The translations under genes and the position numbers were made by a program. This document shows, piece by piece, positions 34,043 to 64,000 of a stretch of DNA of 64,000 nucleotides (positions are counted from its first letter, which is position 1; each line of letters opens with the position of its first letter). The notes beneath the pieces are model-generated. The model searched no databases, had not been told where the DNA came from, and saw nothing but the letters and a program-made list of their open reading frames with translations. This DNA is from a virus: the IMG/VR virus record IMGVR_UViG_2849712525_000001; one strand, given 5' to 3'.

Positions 34043-34047
34043 CATTG

Positions 34048-36063: not shown

Positions 36064-36185
36064 ATGAAAATAATTTCTATTGCGGAAAAAGTCAATTCAA
36101 GTTATAATTGACTTTGATTAGAGTATCTTGGATATAAAAATATTATCAAAAAGCAAGGAATTTAATTGAGAAGGGAATGGTAGCA

Positions 36186-37130: not shown

Positions 37131-37132
37131 TT

Positions 37133-38161: not shown

Positions 38162-38173
38162 TAAATGAGTTAT

Positions 38174-38201
38174 AAAAAGGGTTAATTAGCCCTTTTTATT
38201 T
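38174..38201 (+). terminator. terminator hairpin containing GGGTTAATTAGCCC
   Basis: AAAAAGGGTTAATTAGCCCTTTTTATTT right after parB stop. Confidence 0.55.
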
Positions 38202-48262: not shown

Positions 48263-50464
48263 GATATAGATACAGATTTCCAAAATCAGTATAGACATGT
48301 TATTGTTGAATATGTTCAAGCTAAATATGGGTATGACCATGTTTCACAAATAGTTACTTACAATATGCTAGGCTTGAAAAGCATTATTAGAAACGTAGGG
48401 AAGGTTCTTGGCATTCCTTATCTGGTTACAGATGAATTATCCAAGAATGTTCCTAAGAAAATAAGAAAGTTTGTTTATTTGGAAGAAGAAGATAGAGAAG
48501 AGGAGCAAGAAATTGAACCAACACTGGAAGATTTAAAAACAATTCCTTTTTTTAAAGAAAGAATTGATTCCAGTGAAGATGTTGCTCAACTTTTCAAGAT
48601 TGGTAAACTTTTTGATGGTCTTCCATCTTCAACAGGAAAACACGCCTGTGGAGTTATTATTGGAGCCCATCCACTTCATCAGTATGTTGGCTTAATGGAA
48701 GTTGATGGAGTTCTGGTGACACAATTTGAAAAGAAAGCTTCAGAATCCATTGGGCTTCTCAAAATGGACTTCTTAGGTCTTATTACACTAGACATTGAAG
48801 TGGAGACATTGAGGCTTATAAAGAAAAACAAAGGAATTGAGATAGATTTAGATAAGATTCCATTGGATGATACAAAAACTTTTGAGTTATTACAGAGAGG
48901 TCAATCTGGAAAAGTATTTCAGTTGGAATCTCAGGGAATGCGTAATCTGTTAAAGAAAATGCAACCTACAGATATGAGTCATATTATTGCTATCGCCGCC
49001 CTTTTTCGTCCTGGACCCATGCAATTTATTGATAACTATATCGAAGGAATGAAAACCCCTTCTAAAGTAAAATACCCCCATCCTCTCTATGAAAATTCTG
49101 CAAAAGAAACCTTTGGTATCTTAGTTTATCAGGAACAGATTATGCAGGTTGTGCAGGATATGGCAGGGTTCAGTTTAGGAGAGGCAGATATATTGCGTCG
49201 TGGAATCGGAAAAAAAGATAAGCAATATATCGACCAGATGGAGGAGGAATTTTCCAAACGTTGCGTAGATAATGGTGTCCCTGAAAAGACTGCCAAAGAA
49301 GTCTATGCAATGATAAAGAAATTTGCTGAGTATGGATTTAACAAATCTCATTCAGCAGCATATGCACTCATCGCCTATGAAACTGCATACCTGAAAGCTT
49401 ATTATCCTGTAGAATTTATGGCTGCAAACTGTACTATCAATAGTGATAATAAGGATAAGCTTATATCATGTTTAGCAGAGATAAAAGCGATGGGTATAGA
49501 AATCCTTCCATCATCTATCAGATTCTCTCAAACAAAGTTCACTGTGGAAAAGAGCGAGGGCCAATCAGCTATTCGCTATGGATATATCGGAATTGATGGT
49601 ATAGGTGAAGACATTGCAAAAACTATTGAAACGCTTTCCAATTGTGAAACGTTTTATGATTTTATCAGCCAATGTCCAAATATTCGCAATAACCAGATTA
49701 CAAATCTTATCTATTCTGGGACATTTGATATATTTGGCTGCAGAAAAAAGATGAGAGAGATAGCTCCATCAATTCTTGAAACAGTGAAATACCATAATCA
49801 GATTAAGAGTATATATAAATCATCTATTTTGGATGGCTTAAGTGGTGAAGCGTTCTATGATGGTACAGAATATGGTTTTAAGGAAAAGCTCGATAATGAA
49901 AAAAGAGTTCTTCATTGCTGTATCAGTGGACACCCCTTAGAGCAGATTCGAGGAGTTCTAAAAGGCTATGATACTCTGATTTCAGATATACAAGATTTAA
50001 ATGATGGAGACGATATTCAAATTCTATGTCAGATAAATTCTATACAGCAGATTTTTACAAAGAAAAGTGGAGAGCCAATGGCTTTTCTAAAAATAGAAGA
50101 TGAATACGATTTCTGTGAAGCTATTGTCTTCCCTAAAGCTTATGCAGATATTGAGAATCTTTTAAAAGAAGATTCAGTATTGATTCTTAATGGGAAGATA
50201 CAAATTAAGGAGGACAATGGTGAAGAAAGTATATCTATTATTGTCAATACAGCAAGACATGCATTAAGTAGTGCATTAAGATTCTACGTAGATATAAATG
50301 ATTTAGAAAAAATAGAAGGAGAATTTGTGAATATAAATGGGATTGCTGAAGTGATTGGAGTTGATACAGTTCATAGACAATGCTATAAACAGGCATATTA
50401 TGTAGATTATGTGAAGGCTTTAAATATTTTTAATAAATACAAAATAAAATTTGTATCTGTTTAG
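48263..50464 (+). CDS. dnaE: DNA polymerase III alpha subunit (DnaE), exon 2
   Basis: Begins DIDTDF..HVSQIVTYNMLGLKSIIRNVGKVLG, continues GLLKMDFLGL etc.; spliced product about 1180 aa. Confidence 0.75.
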   Translation, partial: DIDTDFQNQYRHVIVEYVQAKYGYDHVSQIVTYNMLGLKSIIRNVGKVLGIPYLVTDELSKNVPKKIRKFVYLEEEDREEEQEIEPTLEDLKTIPFFKERIDSSEDVAQLFKIGKLFDGLPSSTGKHACGVIIGAHPLHQYVGLMEVDGVLVTQFEKKASESIGLLKMDFLGLITLDIEVETLRLIKKNKGIEIDLDKIPLDDTKTFELLQRGQSGKVFQLESQGMRNLLKKMQPTDMSHIIAIAALFRPGPMQFIDNYIEGMKTPSKVKYPHPLYENSAKETFGILVYQEQIMQVVQDMAGFSLGEADILRRGIGKKDKQYIDQMEEEFSKRCVDNGVPEKTAKEVYAMIKKFAEYGFNKSHSAAYALIAYETAYLKAYYPVEFMAANCTINSDNKDKLISCLAEIKAMGIEILPSSIRFSQTKFTVEKSEGQSAIRYGYIGIDGIGEDIAKTIETLSNCETFYDFISQCPNIRNNQITNLIYSGTFDIFGCRKKMREIAPSILETVKYHNQIKSIYKSSILDGLSGEAFYDGTEYGFKEKLDNEKRVLHCCISGHPLEQIRGVLKGYDTLISDIQDLNDGDDIQILCQINSIQQIFTKKSGEPMAFLKIEDEYDFCEAIVFPKAYADIENLLKEDSVLILNGKIQIKEDNGEESISIIVNTARHALSSALRFYVDINDLEKIEGEFVNINGIAEVIGVDTVHRQCYKQAYYVDYVKALNIFNKYKIKFVSV

Positions 50465-50966: not shown

Positions 50967-52004
50967 ATGAGTAAAAACGACCACAAAAACAAAAAAGATT
51001 CAACGAAACGAAAAGGGAAAAACAATCTAATTGAAAATAAGATAAAATTCAAGTATCCTACTTTATACTTTCTATTAAAAAACGGAGCATCCTTTGGAGT
51101 GTTTGTTACAATTATGACAGCTGCTATTGGTATAATTATTGATTCCATACAGACTTTTATTATGCAGGGATATAGTGAGGGATTAGGATTGAGTCATGTC
51201 ACAATAAAGTTAACTTACTTCTCTTATTGGTTGTATGTTCTCTTTGCTTTATTTATTATTTTGCTATTATTTATTGAAATGTTTGCTTTTGCAAGAAACA
51301 AAGAGAAGATATTAGATAAATTCTTGTTTGCTTGTTGTATATTTACAGAAATCTGTTTTTTATTATCAATCTTATTCTATTTGTTTAGGATAAAGTCATT
51401 TGAATTTGTTTGTGCTTTTGGAGTGATATTTGCTATAACTATTTTAGAAATGCTACTCAATAAGTTTAAAGTCCTTTATTATTCCATTTTCGTTTTTGCA
51501 ACTATTGCCTTAGTAGGTATTGATTTTGATATTATTTTTTTGGGTGGAATTATATTAGCGGTCTTGTTTATACCAACTATGTGTGAGTCTTTTGAGAAAA
51601 CATTTTTTAAAATCTTTCCAAGAGATAAGAATACTCAAAAAATGAAAGCGATGGATATAAGAATAGAGCCAATTATAAATATGATGACTTCTGTATTTAT
51701 AATGTTCTTTCTCCTTTCAGCGGTTATCATTTATGCCACTACATCAATAAATAACTTCAAAAAAGAAGGTATGAGTATGCTTTTCAATGAAGATGAAAAC
51801 CAAATAGTTGAGATAGCAGGATTGAAATACTTATTATTAGAAAATACAGATAATCAGAAGCTGATTATGGAGATAACAGATGAAAAAACTGAAGATAATA
51901 TTAAGATTTATACAGTTAAGAGTGGAGAATTCATGTATTTAGAAGAATATGACAAGATAGTTGTGAAAATAGAAAACTGTAAAATAAATGTGAATAAAAA
52001 ATAA
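50967..52004 (+). CDS. polytopic membrane protein, paralog of 11527..12786
   Basis: 345 aa, many TM helices, conserved N-terminal (YPTLYFLLKNGASFG) and C-terminal (KYLLLENTDNQKLIMEITDEK..GEFMYLEEYDK) blocks; AGGAGG RBS. Confidence 0.55.
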   Translation: MSKNDHKNKKDSTKRKGKNNLIENKIKFKYPTLYFLLKNGASFGVFVTIMTAAIGIIIDSIQTFIMQGYSEGLGLSHVTIKLTYFSYWLYVLFALFIILLLFIEMFAFARNKEKILDKFLFACCIFTEICFLLSILFYLFRIKSFEFVCAFGVIFAITILEMLLNKFKVLYYSIFVFATIALVGIDFDIIFLGGIILAVLFIPTMCESFEKTFFKIFPRDKNTQKMKAMDIRIEPIINMMTSVFIMFFLLSAVIIYATTSINNFKKEGMSMLFNEDENQIVEIAGLKYLLLENTDNQKLIMEITDEKTEDNIKIYTVKSGEFMYLEEYDKIVVKIENCKINVNKK

Positions 52005-52285: not shown

Positions 52286-52876
52286 ATGATTATATATTTA
52301 TCAAAACAAAAAATTGAGAATTTATTTACTGAAATGAAGTTATCTCGTAAAATAGGTTTTTTAAGAGTAAGAAAAATAGAGTTGAAATCTAGCACTCTTA
52401 GTTTGCATGGTGAAATTAGACGTGCAAATGACAGTATTGAATTTATTGATAAATTTAATTATATTATAAAAATATTAAGAAAGAATAACCAGCTTCTTAA
52501 ATTTGAAAATGATATAAAAGAAATAAAATTGTTCTCATATTATTATATTTCTGGAAAAATGTCTGGACTTGAAAAAGATGTCTTTAATTCAGATGAGATA
52601 ATAGATTTTCACATTAAGTCTCAAAATCCTAATTATACAAGCATTGATATCAAATGTTCAGCAAACAATATTGAATTATTTAGTAGGACTGTGAGTGAAA
52701 AATATAGGATTTCTTCAGGTGCATTTTTTTTAATGAATGAGGAATTTTCTGTCGAATTAATAGTTTGGGTTACTTCAGTAGATATTGATAGCAAGAGAAT
52801 TATCGGGTCTCCACTTATTATAAGTTGTAATAATAATAGCAATCAAATCATATCAAAGAAGCTGGGGATAAAATGA
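52286..52876 (+). CDS. hypothetical protein
   Basis: 196-aa ORF with RBS. Confidence 0.45.
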   Translation: MIIYLSKQKIENLFTEMKLSRKIGFLRVRKIELKSSTLSLHGEIRRANDSIEFIDKFNYIIKILRKNNQLLKFENDIKEIKLFSYYYISGKMSGLEKDVFNSDEIIDFHIKSQNPNYTSIDIKCSANNIELFSRTVSEKYRISSGAFFLMNEEFSVELIVWVTSVDIDSKRIIGSPLIISCNNNSNQIISKKLGIK

Positions 52877-52902
52877 AATTATATTTTGATATAATATATG
52901 TA

Positions 52903-52926
52903 TAGCAGTGCTTCTGCTGGAGATGA
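52903..52926 (+). promoter_or_regulatory. conserved palindrome+RBS motif TAGCAG-N-CTGCTGGAGATGA (copy 1 of 5)
   Basis: AGCAG/CTGCT inverted repeat abutting GGAGATGA, 9 nt before ATG of 52935. Confidence 0.5.
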
Positions 52927-52934
52927 GAAAATGA

Positions 52935-53651
52935 ATGAGTGATAATATAAGTTGGCAAAAAAAAATGAAAGAAGGAGAACATATGACAAGAATATGTGCT
53001 GTGGCTAATCAAGAACAATTAGCTATTTCAGCAGATTCCATGTTTACAAATAAAGAATTAAATATTATCAGTTTTCATAATAGGAAATTGTTTTATAAAA
53101 ATGGGCTAATGATAGGAATGTTAGGAACTTGTGAAGTTTTAACATACAAAGGGACAATTTATTTAAAAGATTGCATCCGCGAATATCTAGATTTATATAC
53201 TGGGGAGAATATATTGGATATAATTTTAGGCATTGAGAATGATATGAGAGACCTTTTTTCAATATTTAAATTGGATAATCCCACAAAATTAATATTTCTC
53301 TGGGTGGATAATTTTGAATTTTATTGCTATGCTTTAGAAATTCGCTATAGTAGAAGGAATCTTGGATGTGATGAATCAGTTTCCGTCTACCCTTTTGGTA
53401 AAATTGATTTAAAAAACTATTCTAAATATAAATTTAATAATTATATGTTGGATACAGGAGAAGGTGTTGATGACATTATTGTTAATAAGTTTTATACTTC
53501 ATTACCTGAGACTATAACTTCAAACATTATCAAAGAGGCAATAGATGATACAAGACTCACAACAGTAGGGGGAAATGTGTATACTGTTATACTTAATAAA
53601 TATGGAAAAGGAAAAACTTTTATCAATGGAAAAGAAACATTCTTTAACTGA
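52935..53651 (+). CDS. Ntn-hydrolase (proteasome-beta/HslV)-like family protein, member A
   Basis: After a 17-aa leader, TRICAVANQEQLAISADS..T fits the GxT-[IV]x[AG].D[ST] proteasome-beta/HslV N-terminal pattern; paralogous to 54934, 59876, 60735. Confidence 0.4.
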   Translation: MSDNISWQKKMKEGEHMTRICAVANQEQLAISADSMFTNKELNIISFHNRKLFYKNGLMIGMLGTCEVLTYKGTIYLKDCIREYLDLYTGENILDIILGIENDMRDLFSIFKLDNPTKLIFLWVDNFEFYCYALEIRYSRRNLGCDESVSVYPFGKIDLKNYSKYKFNNYMLDTGEGVDDIIVNKFYTSLPETITSNIIKEAIDDTRLTTVGGNVYTVILNKYGKGKTFINGKETFFN

Positions 53652-53728
53652 TTATCTGAGTTTGGACTTGGAAGAACTTCTCAACATCTTATGATATAAT
53701 AAGATATATTAATTATGAGGTGGAGATA

Positions 53729-54880
53729 ATGAAAGTAGATATTAGCAGTATTAATCTGTATCCAAAGGATACAAATGGATTTTATTATAAAAGAAAGTAT
53801 TATAGTAATATAAAAGATGCCTTAGAGGGGAAACATCTAAAGCAGGAAGTTTTAGACCAGATTGAAAATTATAAGATTATTCAGAGTGAGTTAAAGGGTG
53901 TAAATACAAGAAGAGTACATAGTTCAGATGTTGGATATGGAGCATCTTGGAGTGAATCTTCGGGGATGTCACATGGTGTATCATGTTCAAGTAGTTCAGG
54001 AACTTCAACTGGTATCAGTTCTAGCATTGGATATAGCATTGGAGATAAAGATGATTTGTTGCATTCTGATATGGAAAAAGAGTTATTTAACAGTTTAAAA
54101 ATTATGAATAATTTAAATGAATTAGATGACTTATTTGAAGATAACATAAATGAGTTGGAGGATATAGTTCAGATATATCTTGACTCAATAATTATACCAA
54201 TTCCATTTTTGAGAGCTAATGAATTCTTTTCCTCTCAAGACATAATTATTCATGATGTCAATATTACACAAGAATATTGTAATATTATCAATAGAATTCA
54301 AAAGAATATCTTATCAAAGAATACGTTTAAACTTGAAGAAATATCAAAATTGGAAAGTGCATATACATTCTTGAAAAACAATTATTCAAACGCTATGTAT
54401 TTTTATAAAGAAGAAGGAAAAGAAGAGAAACGAACAAAAGATTTAACTAAATTAGATTTTAGTAAAAAATATAGTTATATACTTTATGTACTATCAGATA
54501 TATCCATTTATGACTGCAAAGCTAAGGATAAATTTAGTAAATTATTAAAAGATTTGACTGATATTCAAATATTGTGTTTTGACAATACATTTTCATTTGA
54601 AGAAAAGAAGTTTAAGAGTCAAAATAAATTAAAGAAAGAATATATAGTTGAGGATAAATCAATTTTTGGGTATATAAAAGATAAATGCTATGAAAAACCA
54701 GTCATATTATTGGAAGGATTAGATAATAAACTTGTTAATAAAGAAATATTACTAAAAGATTATCAATCGGAGGTGCTAATAAATAGAGAATTTGTGAATT
54801 TTGATAAATCTTTCTGTAATGATAAGACTGCATATCTAGAATTTACAACTGGAAACTATATTTATTGGTGTATCATATAA
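53729..54880 (+). CDS. hypothetical protein with Gly/Ser-rich low-complexity segment, paralog of 18626..19705
   Basis: Start MKVDISS after GAGGTGGAG RBS; conserved N-terminal block shared with 18626 gene; internal SWSESSGMSHGVSCSSSSGTSTGISSSIGYSIG. Confidence 0.5.
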   Translation: MKVDISSINLYPKDTNGFYYKRKYYSNIKDALEGKHLKQEVLDQIENYKIIQSELKGVNTRRVHSSDVGYGASWSESSGMSHGVSCSSSSGTSTGISSSIGYSIGDKDDLLHSDMEKELFNSLKIMNNLNELDDLFEDNINELEDIVQIYLDSIIIPIPFLRANEFFSSQDIIIHDVNITQEYCNIINRIQKNILSKNTFKLEEISKLESAYTFLKNNYSNAMYFYKEEGKEEKRTKDLTKLDFSKKYSYILYVLSDISIYDCKAKDKFSKLLKDLTDIQILCFDNTFSFEEKKFKSQNKLKKEYIVEDKSIFGYIKDKCYEKPVILLEGLDNKLVNKEILLKDYQSEVLINREFVNFDKSFCNDKTAYLEFTTGNYIYWCII

Positions 54881-54906
54881 TTATGGGATTCACTTGCTAA
54901 ACAAGA

Positions 54907-54929
54907 TAGCAGTCAGTTGCTGGAGATGA
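54907..54929 (+). promoter_or_regulatory. conserved palindrome+RBS motif (copy 2 of 5)
   Basis: TAGCAGTCAGTTGCTGGAGATGA, 4 nt before ATG of 54934. Confidence 0.5.
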
Positions 54930-54933
54930 AATA

Positions 54934-55575
54934 ATGATAACAGTTCAATCAAACAATATAAGAAGGGATATGAATAGTATGAGCTTTGTAGGAATGACAA
55001 TATGTGATGATGGTATTGTAGCATTTGGAGATAGCAAAGGAACTATAAGAGATGCATTAGGAAATAGCAAAGAAGATACAAAAAGAGGAAACATTCAAAA
55101 AGTCTTTAAAAACAATCATTATGTTTTAGTAACATGTAATGCCAACACATTCTTTGATGAAAGCAATTTTAATATAAATATAGAGAATTTTATGTTAGAT
55201 AATATTAATAACTACAACAATTATTTTGATTTTTTTGAAAAACTATTATGTAGAATATCTTCAAATCAATTGAATTTTAATAATTTATATAAATTTATAA
55301 TTGGGAGTAAAGATGAATTTGGCTATTATGTACAGCATGTTGATATTATAAATAATCAAATAATTATTTGTAAGAAGTTTAGAGATTTGCAAACTTATAC
55401 TATGGGAAACGATTACTATACCCATTTGACATATACTTTTAATTTTAGACTTAATCAAATATTGCTAATTCAAAATGAGATAAAAGATAAAATAGAAAAT
55501 ATAATCAAAGATGTAGATAAGTTTTCTTCCTACAATCCTGTAGGGCTCCCTGTAAATGTAGAGATATTTCAGTAG
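54934..55575 (+). CDS. Ntn-hydrolase (proteasome-beta/HslV)-like family protein, member B
   Basis: MSFVGM|TICDDGIVAFGDSKGTIRDALGNSKEDTKRGNIQKVFKNNHYVLVT parallels HslV [32 protein letters not shown]; same C-terminus (VGLPVNVEIFQ) as 60735. Confidence 0.45.
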   Translation: MITVQSNNIRRDMNSMSFVGMTICDDGIVAFGDSKGTIRDALGNSKEDTKRGNIQKVFKNNHYVLVTCNANTFFDESNFNINIENFMLDNINNYNNYFDFFEKLLCRISSNQLNFNNLYKFIIGSKDEFGYYVQHVDIINNQIIICKKFRDLQTYTMGNDYYTHLTYTFNFRLNQILLIQNEIKDKIENIIKDVDKFSSYNPVGLPVNVEIFQ

Positions 55576-55768
55576 AAAGATAAAATTTATTTAGGTGATA
55601 GAAGAAGCTTTAAATACTGGTTAATATTATCAGTATTCAAGGCTTCTTTTTATCTTGTATAAAGATAAAGCAAGAAGATAGTCTGTTTTTTAATAAAAAT
55701 ATCTATTTATTCTATATTGGTGTGAAAAATGTTGTATTATAGAAATATATATGGGAGGAGTTTTCATA

Positions 55769-58700
55769 ATGATTACTATAAATTGGAGTAAATTTCAACT
55801 TAAAAATAAAAATACTACAGAAGCGTTTGAGAGTTTGTGTTATTTTTTGTTTTGTCGTAAGTTTCAAATAACTGAAGGCATCCATACAGATTTTAATCAA
55901 GTTGGTTTAGAAACTGAACCTATTCAGGATTGTGATGGAAAATGGTGGGGATTTCAAAGTAAATTCTTTGAGAAGAATATGAATTACTTAAATATTAGTC
56001 AATCAATATCAAAAGCTGTGAAAGCATATAAAAACCTCGATTATATCATTGTGTATGTAAATCTATTTGTCAAAACAACATGTAATGCTGCCAAAAAAAT
56101 AGAGGATATTTGTAGGAAAGAAAATATAGAACTTATATGGTATTTACCTCAAAACTTTGAAGTTGAACTCAATCAGCCTAATAATTTAGACTTGGCAGAA
56201 TTCTTTTTTGGTGATACCAATCTTTTAGAAGCGATTGCAGATAGCAAAAGTGTTAGAATGAATACTCTTTTACATTCAAAAGAATATCTTGAGTTGCAAT
56301 TAAAAAATAATAAGGATGTTTTAACAATAACTCATTTTTGTAATGAAATTTTAGAAAAAAATTCCAAACTGTTTCTATTAACAGGAAATGCGGGAACTGG
56401 AAAAAGTGTTTGTATGAGAAAAATCTCTAACATTTTTTCAGGATTAGAAGAAGAATCAGCTGATAATCAACTTCGAAAAATTGAATCTGTGAATGCGTTA
56501 TGTGTATTTATAAATCTTAATAACACATCTTTCGATAATCTGGAAAAGATAATAAATAACTATAAAAAAATGTATTATGCAAATACTTCAATAAATAAAT
56601 TTATATACTTACTTGATGGTTTTGATGAAGTGCCAAACCAAATTGTCACACAAACTCTATTATTTATAGAAGGACTTTTGGATAAAGACCAAACAAAAAA
56701 GATAATTATTTCATCTCGAATATCAAGTCATAATAAATTTATCCTTAAAGCAACATTTCAAAACATTGAAGAATATACAATTGTTGATTTATCTAAGGAT
56801 TTAATAAATAAGTATTTTCAAAGTAAAAATGACATAGATAGAAGTAGACAATTTGAAATTTTTTATGAAAACAATGAAAACTTATATGATAATCTACCAG
56901 ATATTCTAACCTTATCTCTGTTTTGGGAATATATCCTTCAAATAAAGCATACTCATTTTCTTTCTGATTTATTAAATCTAAGTATTCATACAACACTTAA
57001 TGATATCCATTACAAAAAGTATTTGGATGGACTTAATCTGCCTAATCCGAAAGAAAATGCAATTTTAAAAATAAATAAGGAATTATCCTATTCGCTATTT
57101 ATAGATAATGAATTCAGTTTCACACGAGAAAGACTAATAAGTATTATTTCTAAATATTATCCAAAGTGTGATTATCAATCACAAAATAATATTATTTCAT
57201 ATTTATCTGACTGCTTTTTTGATTATAATTTAACTGATAATAGCTTTATTTTTTCTTATCAGCATAGACGTTTTTTAGAATACTTTGCAATTTTAAAATT
57301 TGAAACAATGATGAAAGAAGATTTATGTTTTTTAAGAAAGAAAGATATAATCGTTAATTATGATATGTTTGAAAATTTACTTATTCCTCATCTCCAAAAT
57401 CAATCAGAAAAGAATAATGATTTACCCTTAGCATTTGAAATCAGTTTATTTAATGTTTATTTAGATAATGATGACAATTGGGGAGTTGATAAGTATCCTT
57501 ACTATTGGTCTAATTACATAGTTTATGCAATTGCAGGACTTTCTCATGATTTATTTGAGATTGTTCTTAATGATACTTCATTGCCTATTCATAAGTTCTT
57601 TAATTATATGGGGGATAAAACTATTTCTTTATTACAAACTGGAAATACCAATTACCAGGATTTAGATTATTTTTATAGAAATTTTATAAGCTTAATTTCT
57701 TTAATGTATCAATATGGAAAAAGAGAGTATTTATCTATATATTTAGATAAATTTCTTACAATCGACAACTTAAGCCAAGGCAATAAATACTATTATAATG
57801 CATCTGTAAGAGATAATTTTCTTGTCTGGAGGAATCTAGTATATATTAAAATGATTATTTTGAATTGCGATGTTGATAAAATATTAGATAACTTAATAGA
57901 GAATAGCAAAGATATAAATATTGATAATTTACTTAAGAACAATAATGATATATCTATAAATCAAATAACTGCTATTTATTATAATCTCATTATGTATTAT
58001 CCACAGAAATGTGCAAAAACCATTTCTGAAATGAATTACAATCAATTAAGTATATTTATTGTTTCTATGGCTACAGTGGAATGTCTGGAAAGAATTTTAA
58101 ATAATAATGTCATTCTAAAAACTCTTCAAACAGTTTTAGCTGATGAAATTACTGGAAACAAATTGAGCAGTCTGGCTTGTATAGCCTTAAAAGGTATTAT
58201 AAATGTGCAATTGACAGTAAATGAAAGAGAGTCTTTGACAATTTTCCTGGAAGGGCAAAAATTTGACTACTTTTCATTAAATGAAGATAATATTGACTTT
58301 ATCAGTTTCTTATTTATACCACTTAATGTCAAAGCAAAGGGACATGCATCAATAATAGATTATATAATGTTGTACAGAGACTATTATAGACTCATAACTT
58401 GCGACTGCTCTTTACAGTATTTTGCGTCTCAACTTGTTGAATACCTAAATAATGCAAAAAAGATGAAATATCTGGGTCAGAAACTCATAGGTAAAGCAAT
58501 AGCATTTGCAAGTTTGGATATAGTAGAACTAAAAAATGTAATAGATTATGTTAATTATAATACGGACAACGAAAACTTATTAAAAGTTTATTTTACATTA
58601 AAATCATATAATTCTCAACAATACGATAAGCTTATTAATTCATCTATGATAGAACAGTTGAATAGAGAAGATATTTATTATGATATTGATTATATATCAA

Positions 58701-59839
58701 CAAGTGAATCACTTTTCCAATTATCCTTCATAACATCTTCTAAAGAAAGTATACAGGGATATAATTTATTAATGCAAGGAATAAGAAGTGTGGTTATGAG
58801 AATGGATGAGAGCAAGGACAGTTTAGCAGATAGTGTGCTCATTCCTGGATTGAAGTGTATTATTAAAAACAATTGGCTAACTTCTGAAAAATTAAAAGCT
58901 TATTTGGATAAAATTTTGGAGATAACGGTCCAAATGAAAAAATATAATATCCAAAATTCCACTCATAGTATGCTAATAAATATACTTATTCAATATGATT
59001 TTGATATGGCTATATATTGTTATAGGCAATCATCATCAATTATTGATGATAATCGAGTCCATTATGAAATGGCTTTGGGGATTGTAAGCAGAGGACAAAA
59101 AATTGAATTGGCTGAAGAATGTCTTAAAAATGCAAGATATTTAATTAATGATTATTTTCAAAAATTTAATTTGGATTATTTCTATCATAAAATTAATGTA
59201 TATTTAAAAATTGCATCATGTGATTTTTATGATAAAAACACACAAAGAGAATATTTTGATAAGGCTGAAAAAGTTATTAAATCTATGGTTGATAGTGGCT
59301 GGAATAAAGAATTAAATGAAGCTGAATATAATCTGTATATAAAATTGTGTAATGAATTTAATAAACAAGTAGATGTTAAAAAGAGAGTTAGTAATTATCC
59401 TACTGAAATTCATAAAACTAATAAAATTAATTCCTTAGAAATACTTAAGGCAATCAATAAAGAAGAAGCTCTAAATTCATTTATTCAGGAGATTCGAAGA
59501 GCACATAAGCTAGATTCTATTGAAATAAATGAAGTCCTTATTCAAAAGTCTTTGGATATTACAGGAAATGTTAACAAAATTGTTAATATGTTTAAGGATT
59601 ATCATTATCCAAGTACCAATAGATATTCAAATAATAGTTTGAATTTTTGGATGACTGTTGCTGCAGCCTTAAAAAATCCATTATCTAAATCAGAAATGAT
59701 GAAGTATCTTATAGAAAATGGAGGAGGACATGATGGTTTTGGTGAGATGATAAAGGTTTTCGCCTATTTAGGAGATAAAGAGATGAGTATTAAGCTTTTT
59801 GAAAGTTTATTAAAATGTATTGAATTCTTATTGTGTTAA
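55769..59839 (+). CDS. STAND (NACHT-like) NTPase with N-terminal putative effector domain and long helical C-terminal region (Avs/NLR-like)
   Basis: Walker A LLTGNAGTGKSVCM and Walker B LLDGFDEV in NACHT arrangement; about 170-aa N-terminal domain; about 900-aa helical C-terminus; start at ATG after GGGAGGAG RBS; 1356 aa. Confidence 0.65.
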   Translation: MITINWSKFQLKNKNTTEAFESLCYFLFCRKFQITEGIHTDFNQVGLETEPIQDCDGKWWGFQSKFFEKNMNYLNISQSISKAVKAYKNLDYIIVYVNLFVKTTCNAAKKIEDICRKENIELIWYLPQNFEVELNQPNNLDLAEFFFGDTNLLEAIADSKSVRMNTLLHSKEYLELQLKNNKDVLTITHFCNEILEKNSKLFLLTGNAGTGKSVCMRKISNIFSGLEEESADNQLRKIESVNALCVFINLNNTSFDNLEKIINNYKKMYYANTSINKFIYLLDGFDEVPNQIVTQTLLFIEGLLDKDQTKKIIISSRISSHNKFILKATFQNIEEYTIVDLSKDLINKYFQSKNDIDRSRQFEIFYENNENLYDNLPDILTLSLFWEYILQIKHTHFLSDLLNLSIHTTLNDIHYKKYLDGLNLPNPKENAILKINKELSYSLFIDNEFSFTRERLISIISKYYPKCDYQSQNNIISYLSDCFFDYNLTDNSFIFSYQHRRFLEYFAILKFETMMKEDLCFLRKKDIIVNYDMFENLLIPHLQNQSEKNNDLPLAFEISLFNVYLDNDDNWGVDKYPYYWSNYIVYAIAGLSHDLFEIVLNDTSLPIHKFFNYMGDKTISLLQTGNTNYQDLDYFYRNFISLISLMYQYGKREYLSIYLDKFLTIDNLSQGNKYYYNASVRDNFLVWRNLVYIKMIILNCDVDKILDNLIENSKDINIDNLLKNNNDISINQITAIYYNLIMYYPQKCAKTISEMNYNQLSIFIVSMATVECLERILNNNVILKTLQTVLADEITGNKLSSLACIALKGIINVQLTVNERESLTIFLEGQKFDYFSLNEDNIDFISFLFIPLNVKAKGHASIIDYIMLYRDYYRLITCDCSLQYFASQLVEYLNNAKKMKYLGQKLIGKAIAFASLDIVELKNVIDYVNYNTDNENLLKVYFTLKSYNSQQYDKLINSSMIEQLNREDIYYDIDYISTSESLFQLSFITSSKESIQGYNLLMQGIRSVVMRMDESKDSLADSVLIPGLKCIIKNNWLTSEKLKAYLDKILEITVQMKKYNIQNSTHSMLINILIQYDFDMAIYCYRQSSSIIDDNRVHYEMALGIVSRGQKIELAEECLKNARYLINDYFQKFNLDYFYHKINVYLKIASCDFYDKNTQREYFDKAEKVIKSMVDSGWNKELNEAEYNLYIKLCNEFNKQVDVKKRVSNYPTEIHKTNKINSLEILKAINKEEALNSFIQEIRRAHKLDSIEINEVLIQKSLDITGNVNKIVNMFKDYHYPSTNRYSNNSLNFWMTVAAALKNPLSKSEMMKYLIENGGGHDGFGEMIKVFAYLGDKEMSIKLFESLLKCIEFLLC

Positions 59840-59847
59840 AATAAGTA

Positions 59848-59870
59848 TAGCAGTCAACTGCTGGAGATGA
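59848..59870 (+). promoter_or_regulatory. conserved palindrome+RBS motif (copy 3 of 5)
   Basis: TAGCAGTCAACTGCTGGAGATGA, 5 nt before ATG of 59876. Confidence 0.5.
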
Positions 59871-59875
59871 GGTAA

Positions 59876-60694
59876 ATGGCTAGAAAAGAATCACATTCGC
59901 GTTCAATTATGCCTGTTGATTATTCTAAGAAATTAGATGTGAGTATAGAAAGGAATTTTTATGATATGACAAGTATTATAGGTATGCAGACTAAGAAGAG
60001 TATATGTATCGGTGCAGACTCATGGAATACAAATCCAAGAGACAATCATTTTATCCAGAAACTGTTCGTTAACAAAGATAAAAGCGTAATTATAGCAAGT
60101 GCTGGAGATAATTCTAAATCATATGATGATTTTAATATTATTTATGTTAAAGATATAATTACAGAGTTGCTAAATGCTTATACTTCCTTTGATGTATTGT
60201 ACAATAATCTTATTTTAAAATCAGCAGAGTTTTTAGAGGATATGGATATTGAAGACAGAGCAAAGTTTATTCAATATTATATTGCTTGGATAGATGAAGG
60301 AAAAATAAAAACAAAGAGAGTGGAAATCAAAAAAGTGAAAGAGGCACAGCTCATAAAAAATGAAAATTTAGTTTTAAATGAGATAGGGACAAGCAAAGAA
60401 TATTATATGTATATTATTGACTTCACAAAAGAGGGCAATCCTGCTTTTAATTGCATAGGAACATATGCTGAATTATTTAATACTAATAAAAGGCATATAA
60501 AAAAAATTCCAAAGGAAACAGATAATATACAAAAAATTGTATTCAACAAGATTAGGCAACAGATTCAAAAAAATGATAGAGAAAAAAAGAATAACAAAGC
60601 AGATAAAACTATAGGAAATCCTATTTATGAGGTTTATATGGATATTCAAGGAAATGTCTGTACCTATATGAATGGCGTTGAAGAGAATTTTTAA
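59876..60694 (+). CDS. Ntn-hydrolase (proteasome-beta/HslV)-like family protein, member C
   Basis: Leader ..MTSIIGMQ then TKKSICIGADSWNT...KSVIIASAGDNSKSY (GxDS and AGxxD proteasome-like motifs). Confidence 0.4.
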   Translation: MARKESHSRSIMPVDYSKKLDVSIERNFYDMTSIIGMQTKKSICIGADSWNTNPRDNHFIQKLFVNKDKSVIIASAGDNSKSYDDFNIIYVKDIITELLNAYTSFDVLYNNLILKSAEFLEDMDIEDRAKFIQYYIAWIDEGKIKTKRVEIKKVKEAQLIKNENLVLNEIGTSKEYYMYIIDFTKEGNPAFNCIGTYAELFNTNKRHIKKIPKETDNIQKIVFNKIRQQIQKNDREKKNNKADKTIGNPIYEVYMDIQGNVCTYMNGVEENF

Positions 60695-60707
60695 TATAAT
60701 AAATATA

Positions 60708-60730
60708 TAGCAGTACTCTGCTGGAGATGA
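60708..60730 (+). promoter_or_regulatory. conserved palindrome+RBS motif (copy 4 of 5)
   Basis: TAGCAGTACTCTGCTGGAGATGA, 4 nt before ATG of 60735. Confidence 0.5.
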
Positions 60731-60734
60731 AATA

Positions 60735-61388
60735 ATGGAATGTAAAACAAATAGCATAAGAAAGGTTGGAGAAAATATGAGCTTTGTTGGCTTGCATAAT
60801 ACAAGAGAGGGAATCATTGGTTTTGCGGATAGTAAAGCAACATTAAGGTTTGCAAATGGTGTGATAGGTGAGGACGTCCAAAGAGGAAAGATAACTAAAA
60901 TATTTAAAAATGATAAATTTATTTTTGTTACACATGGTCATAATGAAATCTTTTCTGAAAAGAATAGAGTGAATATAGAAGATTATATTGCTGAACATTT
61001 AAAAAACGGAATTGACTATGAAATTTTTTTTAAATCTCTTGATGAGGCTATCCAAAATGATAAAGGCGATTATCATGATGGAAAATATGCTTTTATAATA
61101 GGAAGCAAAAACAAGAACAATAAATATTTTTTGCTTCGATGTTTCATAGAATATGATAAAAGAATTGTTTTTTCAAAAAAGGAATATGGAAAACAGGTTT
61201 TTTATGGAGGTAGTGAGTTTTATTGTCATTTATATAATAATCAAACATTTTATAATCATATCGAAATATCTAAATATGCTGATATGATTAAAAATTATAT
61301 TGAAACAATTATTGATGCAAAAGATGTATTTTCTGAAATTGAGTACAATGATGTAGGGAAACCTGTGAATGTAGAAATATTTCAGTAG
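60735..61388 (+). CDS. Ntn-hydrolase (proteasome-beta/HslV)-like family protein, member D
   Basis: MSFVGLHN|TREGIIGFADSKATLRFANGVIGEDVQRGKITKIFKNDKFIFVTHG; C-terminus VGKPVNVEIFQ as in member B. Confidence 0.45.
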   Translation: MECKTNSIRKVGENMSFVGLHNTREGIIGFADSKATLRFANGVIGEDVQRGKITKIFKNDKFIFVTHGHNEIFSEKNRVNIEDYIAEHLKNGIDYEIFFKSLDEAIQNDKGDYHDGKYAFIIGSKNKNNKYFLLRCFIEYDKRIVFSKKEYGKQVFYGGSEFYCHLYNNQTFYNHIEISKYADMIKNYIETIIDAKDVFSEIEYNDVGKPVNVEIFQ

Positions 61389-61603
61389 GGTAAATATATT
61401 ACTCTATGGATAATTAAAATATTTATATAAATGACCGACAAATTGGACCTGAATTATGTTTTTTTTAGTAAAAGTAGAAGAGAAAATGATGATTTAGTCA
61501 AACCTTGGTAATACTTATATATAATATCAGTATATTTTTGTATTAATTCATTTTCACAAACATAAAATAATGGTATACTGTATAAACATAAGAGGTGAAT
61601 TTT

Positions 61604-63013
61604 ATGAAAAAAATATTGCACATAAGAAATTTTGGAAAAATAAAACAAGCAGATATTGATTTACAAGAATTTGTATTATTTGTAGGTGATAATAACAGTG
61701 GAAAAACATATATAATGCAACTCATCTATGGGATTTTTAATTATATTGCAAAAACAAATTTTAAAAAACCTTCAAATATAGCTATTCCATCAAATTTTGA
61801 GGACTTTACAATTAATAATAACAGTTTTAATTATTATATTGATTGGCTAAATCAGAATATTAAAAAAGATATTACAGATATTATTCTGGATACATTTAAT
61901 AAGAATATTCCAGTTGGTGAGATTTGGTTTGAAATAGATTTGGAAAAGTATGATATTGATTGCAAGATATTTAGAAATTATAATTTAAAACAATTCTTTT
62001 ATAATGATGAAAAAAATGAAAATTTCACAATAGATATTGATTCTATAGTTAATGAAACTGAATCTACAATTGTGGCTGAAGTATCTCTTAAGGATGAAGA
62101 ATTAGTAACGATAAGGTCTATCAAAAGTCTGACTTTTTTGGATTCTAGTGATATACATAATGGTAAATATCAAGAGAAACTTATTTCTTCATTGCTTCAA
62201 ATGTTATATACTATAATATTTAAATTTACAAAATCACCATTATATTTACCATCATCTAGAGCAGGATTACATTTATTGTATAAAGAATATTTTTTAAGTA
62301 AGGGAGATATTGATTTTAATAAGAACCAAGTTATAGTTGACGATTCCAAAGATATAAGTCATGATTCAACGTTAACAAAGCCATTATATAACTATTTACG
62401 ATTTTTACAAAAATGGTCATTTGATAATAGAACAGCAAAAGAGAATCAGAAATTAATAGATTTTTTAGAGAATCGTTTAATTGATGGAGTATATCAAAAA
62501 ACAGAAAATATTGAATATATTCCTAATGGCTCAGAAGAATCGATTCCATTATATTTGTCATCATCAATGATATCTGAGTTAATCCCTTATTATTATTTTA
62601 TATGTAGTAAGGAATATAGTATAACAGATTATTTAATGATAGATGAGGCTGAATCAAGCTTGCATCCAAAAAAGCAATTTGAATTAGTTAGATTATTAGT
62701 TAGATTAAATAATCATAAGAAAACTATTATTATGAGTACACATAGTGATAGCCTTGCTGCTAAAATTAACAATATTGTCTTAATTTCGAATAAGTTTAAA
62801 AATAAGTCTGAAGACTTGCTAAGAAAATATAATTTAAATAAAGACGATTTGTTTAATAATCCAAATATCAAGGTTTATTCATTCTCAAATAAGGGAACTT
62901 ATAGTCAAGTTGATGAAGTTCCTTATGATAGGAAAATTGGTTTTACATTTGAAGGATTTGAAGATGCTTTAGATAGTTTAGTAGAAGAAGCAGAAGAAAT
63001 ATATAGGAATTGA
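61604..63013 (+). CDS. ABC/SMC-type (AAA_15/21-like) ATPase
   Basis: Walker A GDNNSGKTY, Walker B YLMIDEAESSLHP, H-loop IMSTHSD; start at ATG after AGAGGTGA RBS. Confidence 0.7.
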   Translation: MKKILHIRNFGKIKQADIDLQEFVLFVGDNNSGKTYIMQLIYGIFNYIAKTNFKKPSNIAIPSNFEDFTINNNSFNYYIDWLNQNIKKDITDIILDTFNKNIPVGEIWFEIDLEKYDIDCKIFRNYNLKQFFYNDEKNENFTIDIDSIVNETESTIVAEVSLKDEELVTIRSIKSLTFLDSSDIHNGKYQEKLISSLLQMLYTIIFKFTKSPLYLPSSRAGLHLLYKEYFLSKGDIDFNKNQVIVDDSKDISHDSTLTKPLYNYLRFLQKWSFDNRTAKENQKLIDFLENRLIDGVYQKTENIEYIPNGSEESIPLYLSSSMISELIPYYYFICSKEYSITDYLMIDEAESSLHPKKQFELVRLLVRLNNHKKTIIMSTHSDSLAAKINNIVLISNKFKNKSEDLLRKYNLNKDDLFNNPNIKVYSFSNKGTYSQVDEVPYDRKIGFTFEGFEDALDSLVEEAEEIYRN

Positions 63014-63022
63014 GAGAATACT

Positions 63023-63757
63023 ATGGAATTACAATATGTAAAATATGATGAAGGAACAAAAATCCAAAAAAGAAAACTATACAAAATAGATACTACAAAC
63101 GATAGTATATCTATAGATACAGTAGAAAAGCATTCAGATGACAAATATTGTGAATGTCTTCAATCAAAAATCAATATCTATTATGACCAAAATATTGAAA
63201 CATTCTTTGGACATGAATATAAACCAGAAGGTATTAAAAGCTCTAATTCAAAAAACACTGATATTGTAATAGGATTTTGTAGTAAATTAGAGAAGAAAAT
63301 AAAATACCATTCAATTGATTTGAAGCGCAATCTTATTACTTTTTCTGCCTTAGATACGCCTGAATATAATTTAAAAATTACTTATCAAACTATTTCACAT
63401 CTTATTGAACAGTGGACTGATAATTTAATATATGCAAATATGTGGAAGTGTATTTATAGAGCAAAATATCTAGACTTTCGCCCAATAGTAGCTACAAGAT
63501 ATTATAAGGAGGAGAATTTAGAATCTCTATTACTTTTAAATGAAAAAACTGATAGAAATATTGAATTACCAGGTATAGTGGATAAAAAAAGAAAGCTTAA
63601 GGAAAATGAAATAAAACAAAAATTGAAGGTGTTAAGAGATTTTATAGAAAAAAGAGCTGAATTAGATGGTCAATACTTTTCACTGGAAATAATCGTATTG
63701 GATAAACAAGAAGAGAATAAAAGATATTTTAAATGTTATGATTTCAAATATTACTAA
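63023..63757 (+). CDS. hypothetical partner protein of ABC-type ATPase
   Basis: 244-aa ORF 9 nt downstream of ATPase gene. Confidence 0.45.
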   Translation: MELQYVKYDEGTKIQKRKLYKIDTTNDSISIDTVEKHSDDKYCECLQSKINIYYDQNIETFFGHEYKPEGIKSSNSKNTDIVIGFCSKLEKKIKYHSIDLKRNLITFSALDTPEYNLKITYQTISHLIEQWTDNLIYANMWKCIYRAKYLDFRPIVATRYYKEENLESLLLLNEKTDRNIELPGIVDKKRKLKENEIKQKLKVLRDFIEKRAELDGQYFSLEIIVLDKQEENKRYFKCYDFKYY

Positions 63758-63905
63758 AAAATTAAATATTAATATTTAATTGTTAAGGACTATTTTATAG
63801 AGATGTAGTCCTTTTTAACTTAGATATTAATTTATAATCTATATAAAATACAGTTAAATGTAGTATATATCTACAAAAATTAAGTTTTCATATATAATGA
63901 TAAAA

Positions 63906-63928
63906 TAGCAGTCAACTGCTGGAGATGA
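63906..63928 (+). promoter_or_regulatory. conserved palindrome+RBS motif (copy 5 of 5)
   Basis: TAGCAGTCAACTGCTGGAGATGA, identical core to copy 3. Confidence 0.5.
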
Positions 63929-64000
63929 TTTTTATCAGAAGTAATAGTTATAGAAACAATAAGCCCATTTCAATGAGTTATAATAGTATAAGAAGGGATA
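63925..64000 (+). CDS. partial 5' end of a fifth family member (runs off window)
   Basis: Open frame from ATG in motif to window end; internal MSYNSIRRD at 63973 matches B (SNNIRRD) and D (TNSIRKV). Confidence 0.3.
   Translation, partial: MIFIRSNSYRNNKPISMSYNSIRRD

Follow-up and report, generated by a model that had tools for sequence, protein, structure and literature searches.

The 3′ end of the window (the whole 64,000-nucleotide stretch of DNA that was analysed) carries a run of genes, A to J, with five copies of a hairpin and ribosome-binding-site (RBS) leader motif (Table 1). All genes claimed in the first-pass annotation were found where it had placed them, and its five paralogs, B, D, F, G and the partial J, do form one superfamily with two subtypes, the D/G-type and the B/F/J-type. 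Gene A is kept in the window-like elements L013, L015 and L016, and gene C has a paralog elsewhere in the window (18626-19705, minus strand).

The replicon looks like a plasmid of about 200 kb from Coprobacillus cateniformis. It has genes for RepA_N, ParA, a RecD2-like helicase, DHH, and RadC, as well as 22 tRNAs and a GC-skew switch, and an insertion divides its DnaE. Contigs with these proteins cluster at 186-206 kb, and related loci bear RepA_N, ArdC, Toprim, PcfJ, and topoisomerase. The region is a defence-type accessory island, as had been suspected. A phage structural or prophage module was considered and rejected, as the paralogs have no PHROG match and no relative in IMG/VR or INPHARED.

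Table 1. Genes, leader motif copies and indel segments at the 3′ end of the window
Feature	Coordinates	Strand	Description
Gene A	52286..52876	+	196 aa, no family assignment; directly 5′ of first motif copy
Leader motif copy 1	52903..52926	+	5′ of B; left breakpoint of both indels
11 kb segment (B to I)	52926..63877	.	In window, missing from L013; ends in motif copies
Paralog B	52935..53651	+	B/F-type proteasome-like Ntn hydrolase (predicted), 238 aa
7.75 kb segment (B, C, D, Avs4-like E, F)	52937..60689	.	In window, missing from L016; ends in motif copies
Gene C	53720..54880	+	386 aa, Ser/Gly-rich stretch, no family assignment; cargo between B and D
Leader motif copy 2	54907..54929	+	5′ of D; 3′ arm TTGCT, one G-U wobble stem pair
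Paralog D	54934..55575	+	D/G-type, 213 aa
Avs4-like STAND NTPase (E, cargo 1)	55751..59839	+	Residues about 7-226 match Avs4 N-terminal region; remainder divergent
Leader motif copy 3	59848..59870	+	5′ of F
Paralog F	59876..60694	+	B/F-type, 272 aa
Leader motif copy 4	60708..60730	+	5′ of G; right breakpoint of 7.75 kb indel versus L016
Paralog G	60735..61388	+	D/G-type, 217 aa
PD-T4-4-like pair (cargo 2)	61595..63757	+	H + I
H	61595-63013	+	AAA_15/ABC-type ATPase, 472 aa
I	63023-63757	+	Partner, 244 aa, no family match
Leader motif copy 5	63906..63928	+	5′ of J; right breakpoint of 11 kb indel versus L013
Paralog J	63925..64000	+	Partial, gene cut by window end; B/F-type per orthologue

Predicted fold and N-terminus of the paralogs

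D is clearly paralogous to G (38% identity, E 6e-31), and B is weakly related to F, with 30% identity over 80 aa. Since the two pairs are joined only at the profile level (hhalign probability 92.4%, E 5e-7, 199 columns), they are treated as two subtypes of one superfamily. Some single proteins match the HMMs of both subtypes. The B/F-type assignment of J is based on its full-length orthologue, L016 5298-6047.

The earlier guess of a proteasome/HslV-like Ntn hydrolase was right as judged by the predicted fold and by the retained equivalents of the nucleophile, Asp17, and Lys33. The structure model of D has a pLDDT of 91.3 and a pTM of 0.86, and every one of the top 50 Foldseek matches is a 20S proteasome subunit (E about 1e-5). 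The alpha-beta-beta-alpha Ntn fold of proteasome subunits is present in models of both subtypes, the F model having been built from an input alignment of mostly D-type sequences. The paralogs have no Pfam match at E <= 1, Proteasome (PF00227) included, and a search of PDB sequences with the family profile (hmmsearch) gives nothing at E <= 10. It is the predicted fold, together with the motif spacing, that suggests homology to T1 peptidases.

Residues M16, S17, F18, V19, G20, D33, S34, K35, and K56 are invariant or near-invariant in 42 sequences. In both subtypes Met-Ser/Thr is nearly invariant and Asp at +17 is invariant, with Lys at +31 to +40. The leader peptide does not end in G-M/L as first described, but in Met; the Thr nucleophile proposed to follow it is present in B and F, whereas D and G have Ser. 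B has an internal Shine-Dalgarno (SD) sequence and, at 52983, an ATG from which the protein would begin MTRICAV, with Thr1, Asp17, and Lys34. The internal ATG at 54979 in D gives MSFVGM (Ser1, Asp17, Lys40), that at 59966 in F gives MTSIIGM (Thr1, Asp17, Lys31), and that at 60777 in G gives MSFVGL. Nearly all members have an SD-like AAGGA/GGAGG about 9-13 nt 5′ of the internal ATG, which is retained whatever amino acids the frame encodes (RKD, MED, ERK). About nine library representatives start precisely at MSFVG, and many members are extended in frame at the N-terminus by 14 to about 200 aa.

Two routes to a free N-terminal nucleophile are predicted. Translation would start at the conserved internal SD and ATG and be followed by removal of Met, or a longer in-frame pro-form would start at the upstream ATG and process itself. 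From the models and the conserved residues, we infer that each paralog is an active Ser1/Thr1 hydrolase, probably a peptidase.

Distribution and relatives of the family

The family is rare and limited to gut Firmicutes, where it occurs, nearly always as mixed arrays of 2-7 copies, on mobile elements of gut Erysipelotrichaceae and Lachnospiraceae. No STAND gene is found in any of 29 other family loci, and neither a conserved partner nor a STAND gene appears among 148 non-redundant neighbours and the locus maps. The neighbours include many surface and membrane proteins and not defence genes alone, so the link of the family to conflict is weak.

Both subtypes occur together in about 21 of the 29 loci, usually adjacent, in arrays of 2-7 copies. 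This co-occurrence would fit a heteromeric complex equally well, in which the D/G-type and B/F-type are subunits of one hetero-oligomeric proteasome-like ring serving the element, for example in quality control or the processing of element proteins, by analogy with alpha/beta subunits or the seven beta paralogs of eukaryotes. The closest structural matches are ring-formers, and co-regulation is expected from the common leader. However, copy number and subtype composition vary widely, near-identical elements differ by gain or loss of single modules, and fragmented or pseudogenised copies are common. Both subtypes have all the catalytic residues, none of the 148 neighbours is a conserved AAA+ unfoldase partner, and obligate partners exchanging so freely would hardly be expected to diverge as far as the paralogs have (under 30% identity). 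A hetero-oligomeric ring is thus unlikely.

The paralogs share the fold of proteasome beta and HslV (MEROPS T1), but without a sequence-profile match. In contrast to the Thr1 of those proteins, the D/G-type has Ser1, together with a 7-9 residue insertion before the Lys, and the family has its own C-terminal YNPVGLP motif. Unlike genes for proteasome beta and HslV, the paralog genes are multi-copy and lie on mobile elements, and unlike HslV they have no conserved HslU-type or other AAA+ partner. The Anbu gene shares a conserved operon with genes for an ATP-grasp protein and a transglutaminase, and such neighbours are not seen around the paralogs. None of Anbu, BPH, and connectase is known to occur as a plasmid paralog array. 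Connectase lacks helices H1/H2 (PMC8665760), which are present in the D and F models.

The family could be part of the FC1–FC5 clusters of Firmicute proteasome homologues (Fuchs, Alva and Lupas 2021, PMC8665760), with which it was compared by description only. These clusters are divergent, proteasome-like, restricted to Firmicutes, and found only by remote homology, and have a Thr1/Ser1-Asp17-Lys33 triad (PMC8665760). The same description fits the paralogs. The representatives of FC1-FC5 are WP_075525441.1, WP_000217171.1, WP_098409529.1, WP_076223917.1, and WP_106036939.1, and neither an informative genomic context nor an AAA+ partner is reported for the clusters (PMC8665760). The array organisation, common leader motif, mobile setting, and motif-bounded indels are not part of that description. 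Propeptides are said there to be confined to proteasome beta and HslV (PMC8665760), in contrast to the N-terminal extensions of many members here.

The leader motif and the indel junctions

As claimed earlier, the same palindrome and RBS motif precedes every family member in the window, all five copies lying directly upstream of a paralog. It has the form TAGCAGT-N3-4-YTGCTGGAGATGA, also written TAGCAGT-N3-4-(C/T)TGCTGGAGATGA, and no further copy is found in the 64-kb window, where dinucleotide shuffles predict 0. Copy 1 is made up of a 5-6 bp hairpin, AGCAG/CTGCT, and the extended SD GGAGATGA; in general form the hairpin abuts an extended SD of GGAG(A/G)TGAT. The motif is present at 40 of 67 non-redundant paralogs and at 4 of 225 other ORFs (Fisher p = 1e-26), and about 40% of paralogs lack a recognisable hairpin. 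The hairpin is the sole consistent RNA structure predicted in the leaders. It has six stem versions, and all five pairs show both-sided changes, within a hairpin set that was chosen by ability to pair. A -10 box lies directly 5′ of the leader in some loci. The leader probably sets translation or mRNA stability across the whole paralog family.

Two near-identical elements differ from the window by indels that start and end at the motif. Backbone identity to the window is 99.2-99.3% for L016 and 99.5% for L013. L016 is without the Avs4-like segment and L013 without both defence systems, and both keep paralogs. The crossovers map inside the motif, to perfectly identical stretches of just 8-13 nt, a short length for recombination of the RecA type. 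Since these elements lack exactly B–F or B–I, with junctions inside the motif, the paralogs are regarded as free-standing. As a direct repeat, the leader would be the junction at which paralog-plus-cargo blocks are gained or lost.

The stems are identical within one element and the loops are variable, so the motif could instead be a recombination site or a DNA operator. As a DNA site, the 23-nt palindrome would mainly serve a site-specific or hairpin-recognising recombinase (compare integron attC and IS200/REP); the island would be a cassette array with a paralog as the first gene of each cassette, and the RNA/RBS role would be secondary. Both indel junctions, with their short identity, are in line with this, and in a second lineage homology breaks exactly at a motif copy. 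Stems differ between elements, and IS200-type Y1 transposases are among the neighbours at other loci. Nevertheless, there is no recombinase among about 40 window ORFs scanned, and the motif lies at a fixed distance 5′ of the start codon with a near-perfect anti-16S SD, as for an expression signal. About 35-50 nt of flanking promoter-like sequence is also shared, which points to ordinary repeat homology, and the junctions were compared in three haplotypes only. A primary role as a recombinase site is decidedly unlikely.

An operator would bind an element-encoded repressor that keeps all the paralogs silent until a cue comes, for instance arrival in a new host or infection by a phage. In several loci a 5-N3/4-5 inverted repeat does lie between a -10-like box and the SD, and its half-site is conserved within an element while the loops vary, with half-sites changing symmetrically between elements. 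In the L018, L019, and L020 lineages, however, the motif is intercistronic without a -10 box, and the D copy (AGCAG/TTGCT) pairs only through a G-U wobble, which keeps the RNA structure and not the DNA symmetry. No candidate repressor was identified, and we judge an operator quite improbable.

The defence genes and the nature of the array

Residues 7-226 of E match positions 1-229 of the PADLOC Avs4 model (3.7e-34) and positions 1-225 of NCBIfam NF041815 (1.4e-37). The matched region comprises the N-terminal Mrr-like nuclease effector and the P-loop, the start of the NTPase, and covers about the first 225 of 1579 NF041815 positions, or about 15% of the model. E is not a full-length Avs4 equivalog including the C-terminal sensor, scoring 128.6 bits against an NCBIfam cut-off of 1500. 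Its STAND core is matched weakly by NPHP3_N (25.2 bits, cut-off 24.8) and by NACHT (17.2 bits, below cut-off); only the P-loop region of the NTPase core is matched strongly. NCBI labels it NACHT domain-containing, and it has no PDB sequence match. Avs4 is a single-gene system, and E is likewise of single-gene-system size, its first-ATG ORF being 1362 aa; the length of 1356 aa given earlier is that of the NCBI annotation. In contrast to Avs4, the central and C-terminal parts of E are divergent.

The ABC-type ATPase and its 244-aa partner are present as described. H is a full-length match to PD-T4-4_A (PADLOC PDLC04033, 7e-45, covering 3-455/460) and also matches Pfam AAA_15 (3.6e-22). I begins 9 nt after H and has no match among PADLOC models, those for a PD-T4-4 B component included, nor among Pfam, PHROG, or NCBIfam models. 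PD-T4-4, a defence system of two genes that comes from the E. coli pangenome, was originally discovered in the defence locus of an ICE. The H-I pair resembles it in having a small gene 3′ of the ATPase and in lying in a defence locus on a mobile element, and differs in its Firmicute host and in the partner I. The pair is present in L016 and absent from L013, and E is missing from both.

STAND systems are often paired with peptidases, and the genes here are adjacent on the same strand, F beginning 37 nt past the STAND stop codon. Even so, the proposal that E and the paralogs form one new defence or abortive-infection system, in which the STAND protein senses and the hydrolases are effectors or the reverse, is highly implausible: the lack of co-occurrence in the 29 other loci already contradicts it, E has its own Avs4-type nuclease region, L016 and L013 (backbone at least 99% identical) retain paralogs without it, and a sequenced strain has intact paralogs alongside a STAND gene broken in two (276 + 1053 aa). 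We read the Avs4-like gene and the PD-T4-4-like pair as swappable cargo, each resembling a known phage-defence system that acts on its own, and not as partners of the hydrolases.

We consider it fairly likely that the paralogs are rare, fast-diverging Ntn hydrolases of proteasome-beta/HslV fold in multi-copy arrays, that their shared leader is both an expression signal and an indel junction, and that the defence genes are cargo. From their diversification, their copy number, and their mobile-element setting among defence genes, we infer that the hydrolases act in genetic conflict, as defence or counter-defence.

A bolder and rather doubtful reading is that the array is a new cassette system. 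The diversifying Ser1/Thr1 hydrolases would then serve a gut-Firmicute megaplasmid as effectors of immunity or counter-immunity, and the hairpin-RBS leader would be specialised for recombination and regulation, as the site through which elements exchange paralog-plus-defence modules. The modules named in this reading are Avs4-like, PD-T4-4-like, Pycsar, and others. As in integron cassette arrays and repeat-bounded defence hotspots, modules are bounded by a short repeated palindrome, and cargo differs on otherwise identical backbones. Unlike in integron arrays, the repeat sits at the 5′ ends of the members of one conserved gene family and also serves them as RBS leader; it has a stem of just 5-6 bp, and no integrase is among the scanned window ORFs. 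If the cassette reading is true, a protease family would be the core around which a defence island is organised on a principle like that of integrons.

Proteasome-like hydrolases of two subtypes

The five paralogs of the island (genes B, D, F, G and the partial J) have no match in Pfam, PHROGs, NCBIfam, or PADLOC, and the family profile has none among PDB sequences. An AlphaFold model of D (42 homologues) is confident, with a pLDDT of 91.3 and a pTM of 0.86, and its Foldseek matches are 20S proteasome subunits throughout. The D/G family contains invariant or nearly invariant residues at M16, S17, F18, V19, G20, D33, S34, K35, and K56. With Ser17 numbered as residue 1, the Asp becomes Asp17, the exact position it has in proteasome beta and HslV, and the K-[IV]-F strand contributes Lys40. 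B and F have a Thr nucleophile, Asp17, and Lys34 or Lys31. The predicted fold, the Foldseek matches, and the spacing of nucleophile, Asp17, and Lys bear out the proteasome/HslV-like Ntn fold proposed in the first-pass annotation, and the paralogs are predicted to be free-standing proteasome-like hydrolases.

All sizeable ORFs from 52.3 kb to the window end are on the plus strand. At 38% identity and E 6e-31, D and G are clear paralogs; the similarity between B and F is weak (30% identity across 80 residues), and BLAST does not connect the two pairs. When the D/G profile (42 sequences) is aligned with the B/F profile (6 sequences), the probability is 92.4% and the E-value 5e-7 over 199 columns, and some homologues in other loci match both HMMs. 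J is assigned to the B/F type because its full-length orthologue in L016, a metagenome contig near-identical to the window, is of this type. The earlier count of five paralogs is thus upheld by BLAST within the pairs, the profile link between them, and the J orthologue, and the five constitute one superfamily with two subtypes.

Coordinates of the island genes and the main replicon features in the window
Feature	Coordinates	Strand	Description
A	52286-52876	+	196 aa
B	52935-53651	+	238 aa, paralog
C	53720-54880	+	386 aa
D	54934-55575	+	213 aa, paralog
E	55751-59839	+	1362 aa, STAND NTPase
F	59876-60694	+	272 aa, paralog
G	60735-61388	+	217 aa, paralog
H	61595-63013	+	472 aa, ABC-type ATPase
I	63023-63757	+	244 aa, partner of H
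J	start 63925	+	paralog, truncated at window end
RepA_N	23652-25364	-	
ParA	36177-37130		followed by a 342-aa gene
tRNA genes	13288-13361 and 18425-22324		22 genes
DnaE (DNA polymerase III alpha)	46254-50464	+	two ORFs

The paralogs contain two in-frame starts. A Met always precedes the nucleophile residue, and a purine-rich block resembling a Shine-Dalgarno (SD) sequence (AGAAAGGAT, ATGGAGGAT, GAAAGGAAG, or AAAGGAG) is present about 9-13 nt 5' of this internal ATG. The block is retained despite differing encoded residues (RKD, MED, ERK) and codon phases, which suggests selection on the nucleotides and points to a real internal initiation site. MSFVG is the exact start of about nine among the best 150 library representatives. 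If translation began at the internal ATG and the Met were then removed, Ser1 or Thr1 would be directly exposed, as in HslV. The upstream in-frame extension comprises 14-30 codons in the window and up to about 200 elsewhere. Since its reading frame remains open in AT-rich DNA and it is served by a strong SD of its own, a longer pro-form is probably made too. The long extensions (about 100-200 aa) of P0008, P0025, P0036, and other family members are of low complexity, with Ser, Gly, Asn, Tyr, and Cys abundant.

Some other genes of the region have features of their own. A Ser/Gly-rich stretch in C (residues about 70-110) resembles the N-terminal extensions of some family members. C has a distant paralog at 18626-19705 on the minus strand (E 9e-18), as does a 345-aa membrane protein (50967-52004) at 11527-12786, also on the minus strand (E 2e-33); neither pair has a Pfam match. 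The only match of A is to DUF7019, below threshold (E 0.039). A sits directly upstream of the first copy of the leader motif in all window-like elements, and this fixed position, first in the array, may be of significance.

The leader motif and its role as a breakpoint

There are exactly five copies of the motif TAGCAGT-N3-4-(C/T)TGCTGGAGATGA in the 64 kb, against 0 predicted by shuffles. The copies start at 52903, 54907, 59848, 60708, and 63906, each 5-9 nt before an annotated paralog start, which confirms the first-pass report of a shared palindrome and ribosome-binding site before every paralog. The motif folds into a hairpin of 5-6 bp, the sole consistent structure across the leaders, and the octamer 3' of the hairpin is best read as an extended SD sequence. 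Other loci contain GGAGTGAT, GAGGTGATA, and GGGATGAT at the same position, and these variants approximate GGAGGTGAT, which is complementary to the 3' end of Firmicute 16S rRNA. A mini-ORF in GGAGATGA was rejected, as its ATG adjoins the SD without a spacer and the octamer better fits the extended anti-16S SD GGAGGTGA with one mismatch. A riboswitch-like leader was also rejected, because whole-leader RNA folds are no stabler than shuffles (z = 0 to 0.8).

Across loci, the hairpin and SD are found before 40 of 67 non-redundant paralogs, compared to 4 of 225 other ORFs (p = 1e-26). The stem comes in six or more versions (AGCAG, GGTAG, AGTGG, GGCGA, GGTCA, and GATAG), with both-sided changes at all five stem pairs; this set was picked for pairing ability, and the percentage paired carries no weight. 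Stems are identical inside one element and loops differ, and in one window copy pairing is kept through G-U. Some arrays have a TGnTATAAT box 7-8 nt upstream of the motif, so that the hairpin would lie at the 5' end of the mRNA in those arrays; in others the motif is intercistronic. Rfam at the gathering threshold detects tRNAs only, and a sigma-70 promoter scan (134 sites vs 112 expected) is uninformative in AT-rich DNA.

The related loci L003 (6000-10700) and L004 contain an intergenic stretch of about 80 nt that is nearly identical before six successive paralogs of one array. It consists of a terminator-like hairpin, a TGnTATAAT box, and the leader hairpin. The proteins of these six paralogs have diverged past BLAST recognition, which would imply leaders that are strongly constrained or homogenised, as against very fast protein divergence.

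The motif also marks the boundaries of gene blocks. In two metagenome contigs, L016 and L013, the backbone (DnaE, the membrane protein, and A) is 99.2-99.5% identical to the window. L016 lacks window positions 52937-60689 (B, C, D, E, and F), L013 lacks 52926-63877 (B through I), and in both the flanks overlap by about 50 nt that match the motif copies. At the L016 junction, the left flank is A|B-type up to and including the loop, G-type sequence begins directly after GGAGATGA, and the junction alignment places the crossover inside CTGCTGGAGATGA. The L013 junction follows the A|B-type flank as far as TAGCAGT and continues with the J-type loop, with the crossover inside ATAGCAGT. With [m] as the motif, the haplotypes are A-[m]-J in L013, A-[m]-G-H-I-[m]-J in L016, and A-[m]-B-C-D-E-F-[m]-G-H-I-[m]-J in the window. 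L016 and L013 differ by a motif-bounded block of G' and the PD-T4-4-like genes. In a second lineage, with the stem GATAG/CTATC, homology between the loci L019 and L018 ends exactly at a motif copy.

The favoured reading is that the motif is an RNA element which sets translation or mRNA stability for the family and which, being a direct repeat, also serves in recombination. Live alternatives are a DNA operator and a dedicated recombination site; the window ORFs scanned contain no recombinase.

Defence cargo on a plasmid-like replicon

E aligns to the opening 225-229 positions of the Avs4 models (PADLOC 3.7e-34, NCBIfam NF041815 1.4e-37), a region that comprises the N-terminal nuclease effector and the P-loop. 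Its score is 128.6 bits against an equivalog cut-off of 1500, and the NACHT and NPHP3_N matches of its STAND core are both weak; E is therefore called Avs4-like rather than Avs4. H has a full-length PD-T4-4_A match (7e-45, positions 3-455 of 460), and the adjacent I has no family match. PD-T4-4 was first discovered in the defence locus of an integrative conjugative element. By these matches, E and H appear to be defence systems of known types. In the haplotype series, the PD-T4-4-like pair and the Avs4-like gene act as cargo blocks that can be separated. F is divided into 150 + 125 aa in one MAG, and E is annotated as 276 + 1053 aa in strain HMPREF9488, which suggests ongoing pseudogenisation of cargo and paralogs alike. 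Further accessory genes at 7681-8247 (-), 15012-15614 (+), 5233-6483 (-), and 4224-5126 (-) encode SIR2-family, HD-domain, Y-family (ImpB/UmuC-type) polymerase, and RlaP-type nucleotidyltransferase proteins, and the SIR2 and HD proteins could be more defence-related cargo.

A hypothetical protein of Coprobacillus cateniformis has the same sequence as D (100% identity). The window has genes for RepA_N, ParA, a RecD2-like helicase, a DHH phosphoesterase, RadC, and a Y-family polymerase, and independent assemblies carry these proteins on contigs of 186-206 kb. The element is read as a putative plasmid-like replicon of about 200 kb. A literature search for a C. cateniformis megaplasmid gave nothing useful, and megablast of the backbone against PLSDB gave one 47-nt match only. 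Near 34-36 kb (region about 34000-38200), at ParA and the 342-aa gene, the GC skew changes sign and genes are divergently oriented, with the strand changing from minus to plus at the switch. Together with RepA_N, this region is probably the replication and partition region.

The tRNA array adjoins the RepA_N gene and is unusually large for a plasmid; 20 of its 22 genes are on the minus strand within 2.3 kb (20022-22324). DnaE is interrupted exactly within the catalytic motif ERVSMP|DIDTDF by about 640 nt with no sizeable ORF. The last 47 nt of this insert, at 48211-48257 directly 5' of exon 2, share 95-100% identity with plasmid sequences from Bacillus toyonensis, Clostridium botulinum, and Staphylococcus carnosus. 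The insert has no Rfam match at E <= 0.1, introns included, and appears to be an intron-like insertion that is undescribed or highly divergent.

Distribution and significance of the family

The D/G family is small, with 45 clusters in a set of 5.8 billion proteins and 297 representatives in one of 1.84 billion, and searches for B/F-type homologues give four proteins only. The paralog family was not found in PLSDB plasmids or INPHARED phages by tblastn, nor in an IMG/VR scan. A phage structural module was rejected, as there is no PHROG match and none in INPHARED or IMG/VR. Among GTDB species representatives only two loci have the family, one in a Massilimicrobiota and one in an Anaerostipes. 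It is carried by 19 metagenome contigs, and both of those with a recorded source are from the human gut. The family is carried by mobile elements, with contexts that include RepA_N, ArdC, Toprim, DnaE, PcfJ, topoisomerase, and SpaA-type adhesins.

The 29 related loci have clusters of 2-7 copies, with fragments common, and both subtypes are present in about 21 of them. The recurrent members among 148 non-redundant neighbours are Listeria-Bacteroides-repeat surface proteins (6) and ImmA/IrrE-type M78 peptidases (4), and RmuC, NADAR, NERD, Fic, IS200 transposase, PDC-S01, and MADS-2 recur twice each. One locus has genes for a reverse transcriptase, an SNF2 helicase, a Fic protein, and a Pycsar-like pair dispersed among its paralogs. 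The 148 neighbours include neither a conserved partner nor an AAA+ unfoldase, and the first eight related loci have no conserved partners of A, C, E, H, or I. By clustering, the window shares the H-I pair, A, and the 345-aa membrane protein only with the near-identical elements L013, L015, and L016. The first-pass annotation suggested that the STAND NTPase and the Ntn paralogs could form one module. This is not supported, since the window alone has a STAND gene and the 29 related loci have none, and since E and H-I are separable from the paralogs between near-identical elements.

Fuchs, Alva, and Lupas described 22 new groups of proteasome homologues, five of them restricted to Firmicutes (FC1-FC5), found neither informative genomic context nor a co-occurring AAA+ partner for their groups, and considered propeptides confined to proteasome beta and HslV (PMC8665760). 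The present family may be one of FC1-FC5 or a further cluster. The catalogued divergent homologues of Firmicutes come with neither genomic context nor a hint of function; the window family has a mobile-element, multi-copy context. A literature search on proteasome-like defence systems returned only the catalogue of Fuchs et al. As far as seen, the mobile-element setting, the mixed-subtype arrays, the dual-start architecture, and the conserved leader with its breakpoint role in defence-cargo indels are undescribed. Diversification and neighbourhood hint, weakly, at a conflict-related role of the hydrolases.

The locus gives a family of Firmicute proteasome homologues a genomic context, which is mobile and arrayed, with co-occurring subtypes and a common leader at breakpoints, and this renders the family approachable by experiment. 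It also illustrates concretely how a plasmid region can become a modular defence island through a short repeated expression signal. If the enzymes are immune or anti-immune effectors, proteasome-fold hydrolases would join the prokaryotic conflict repertoire.
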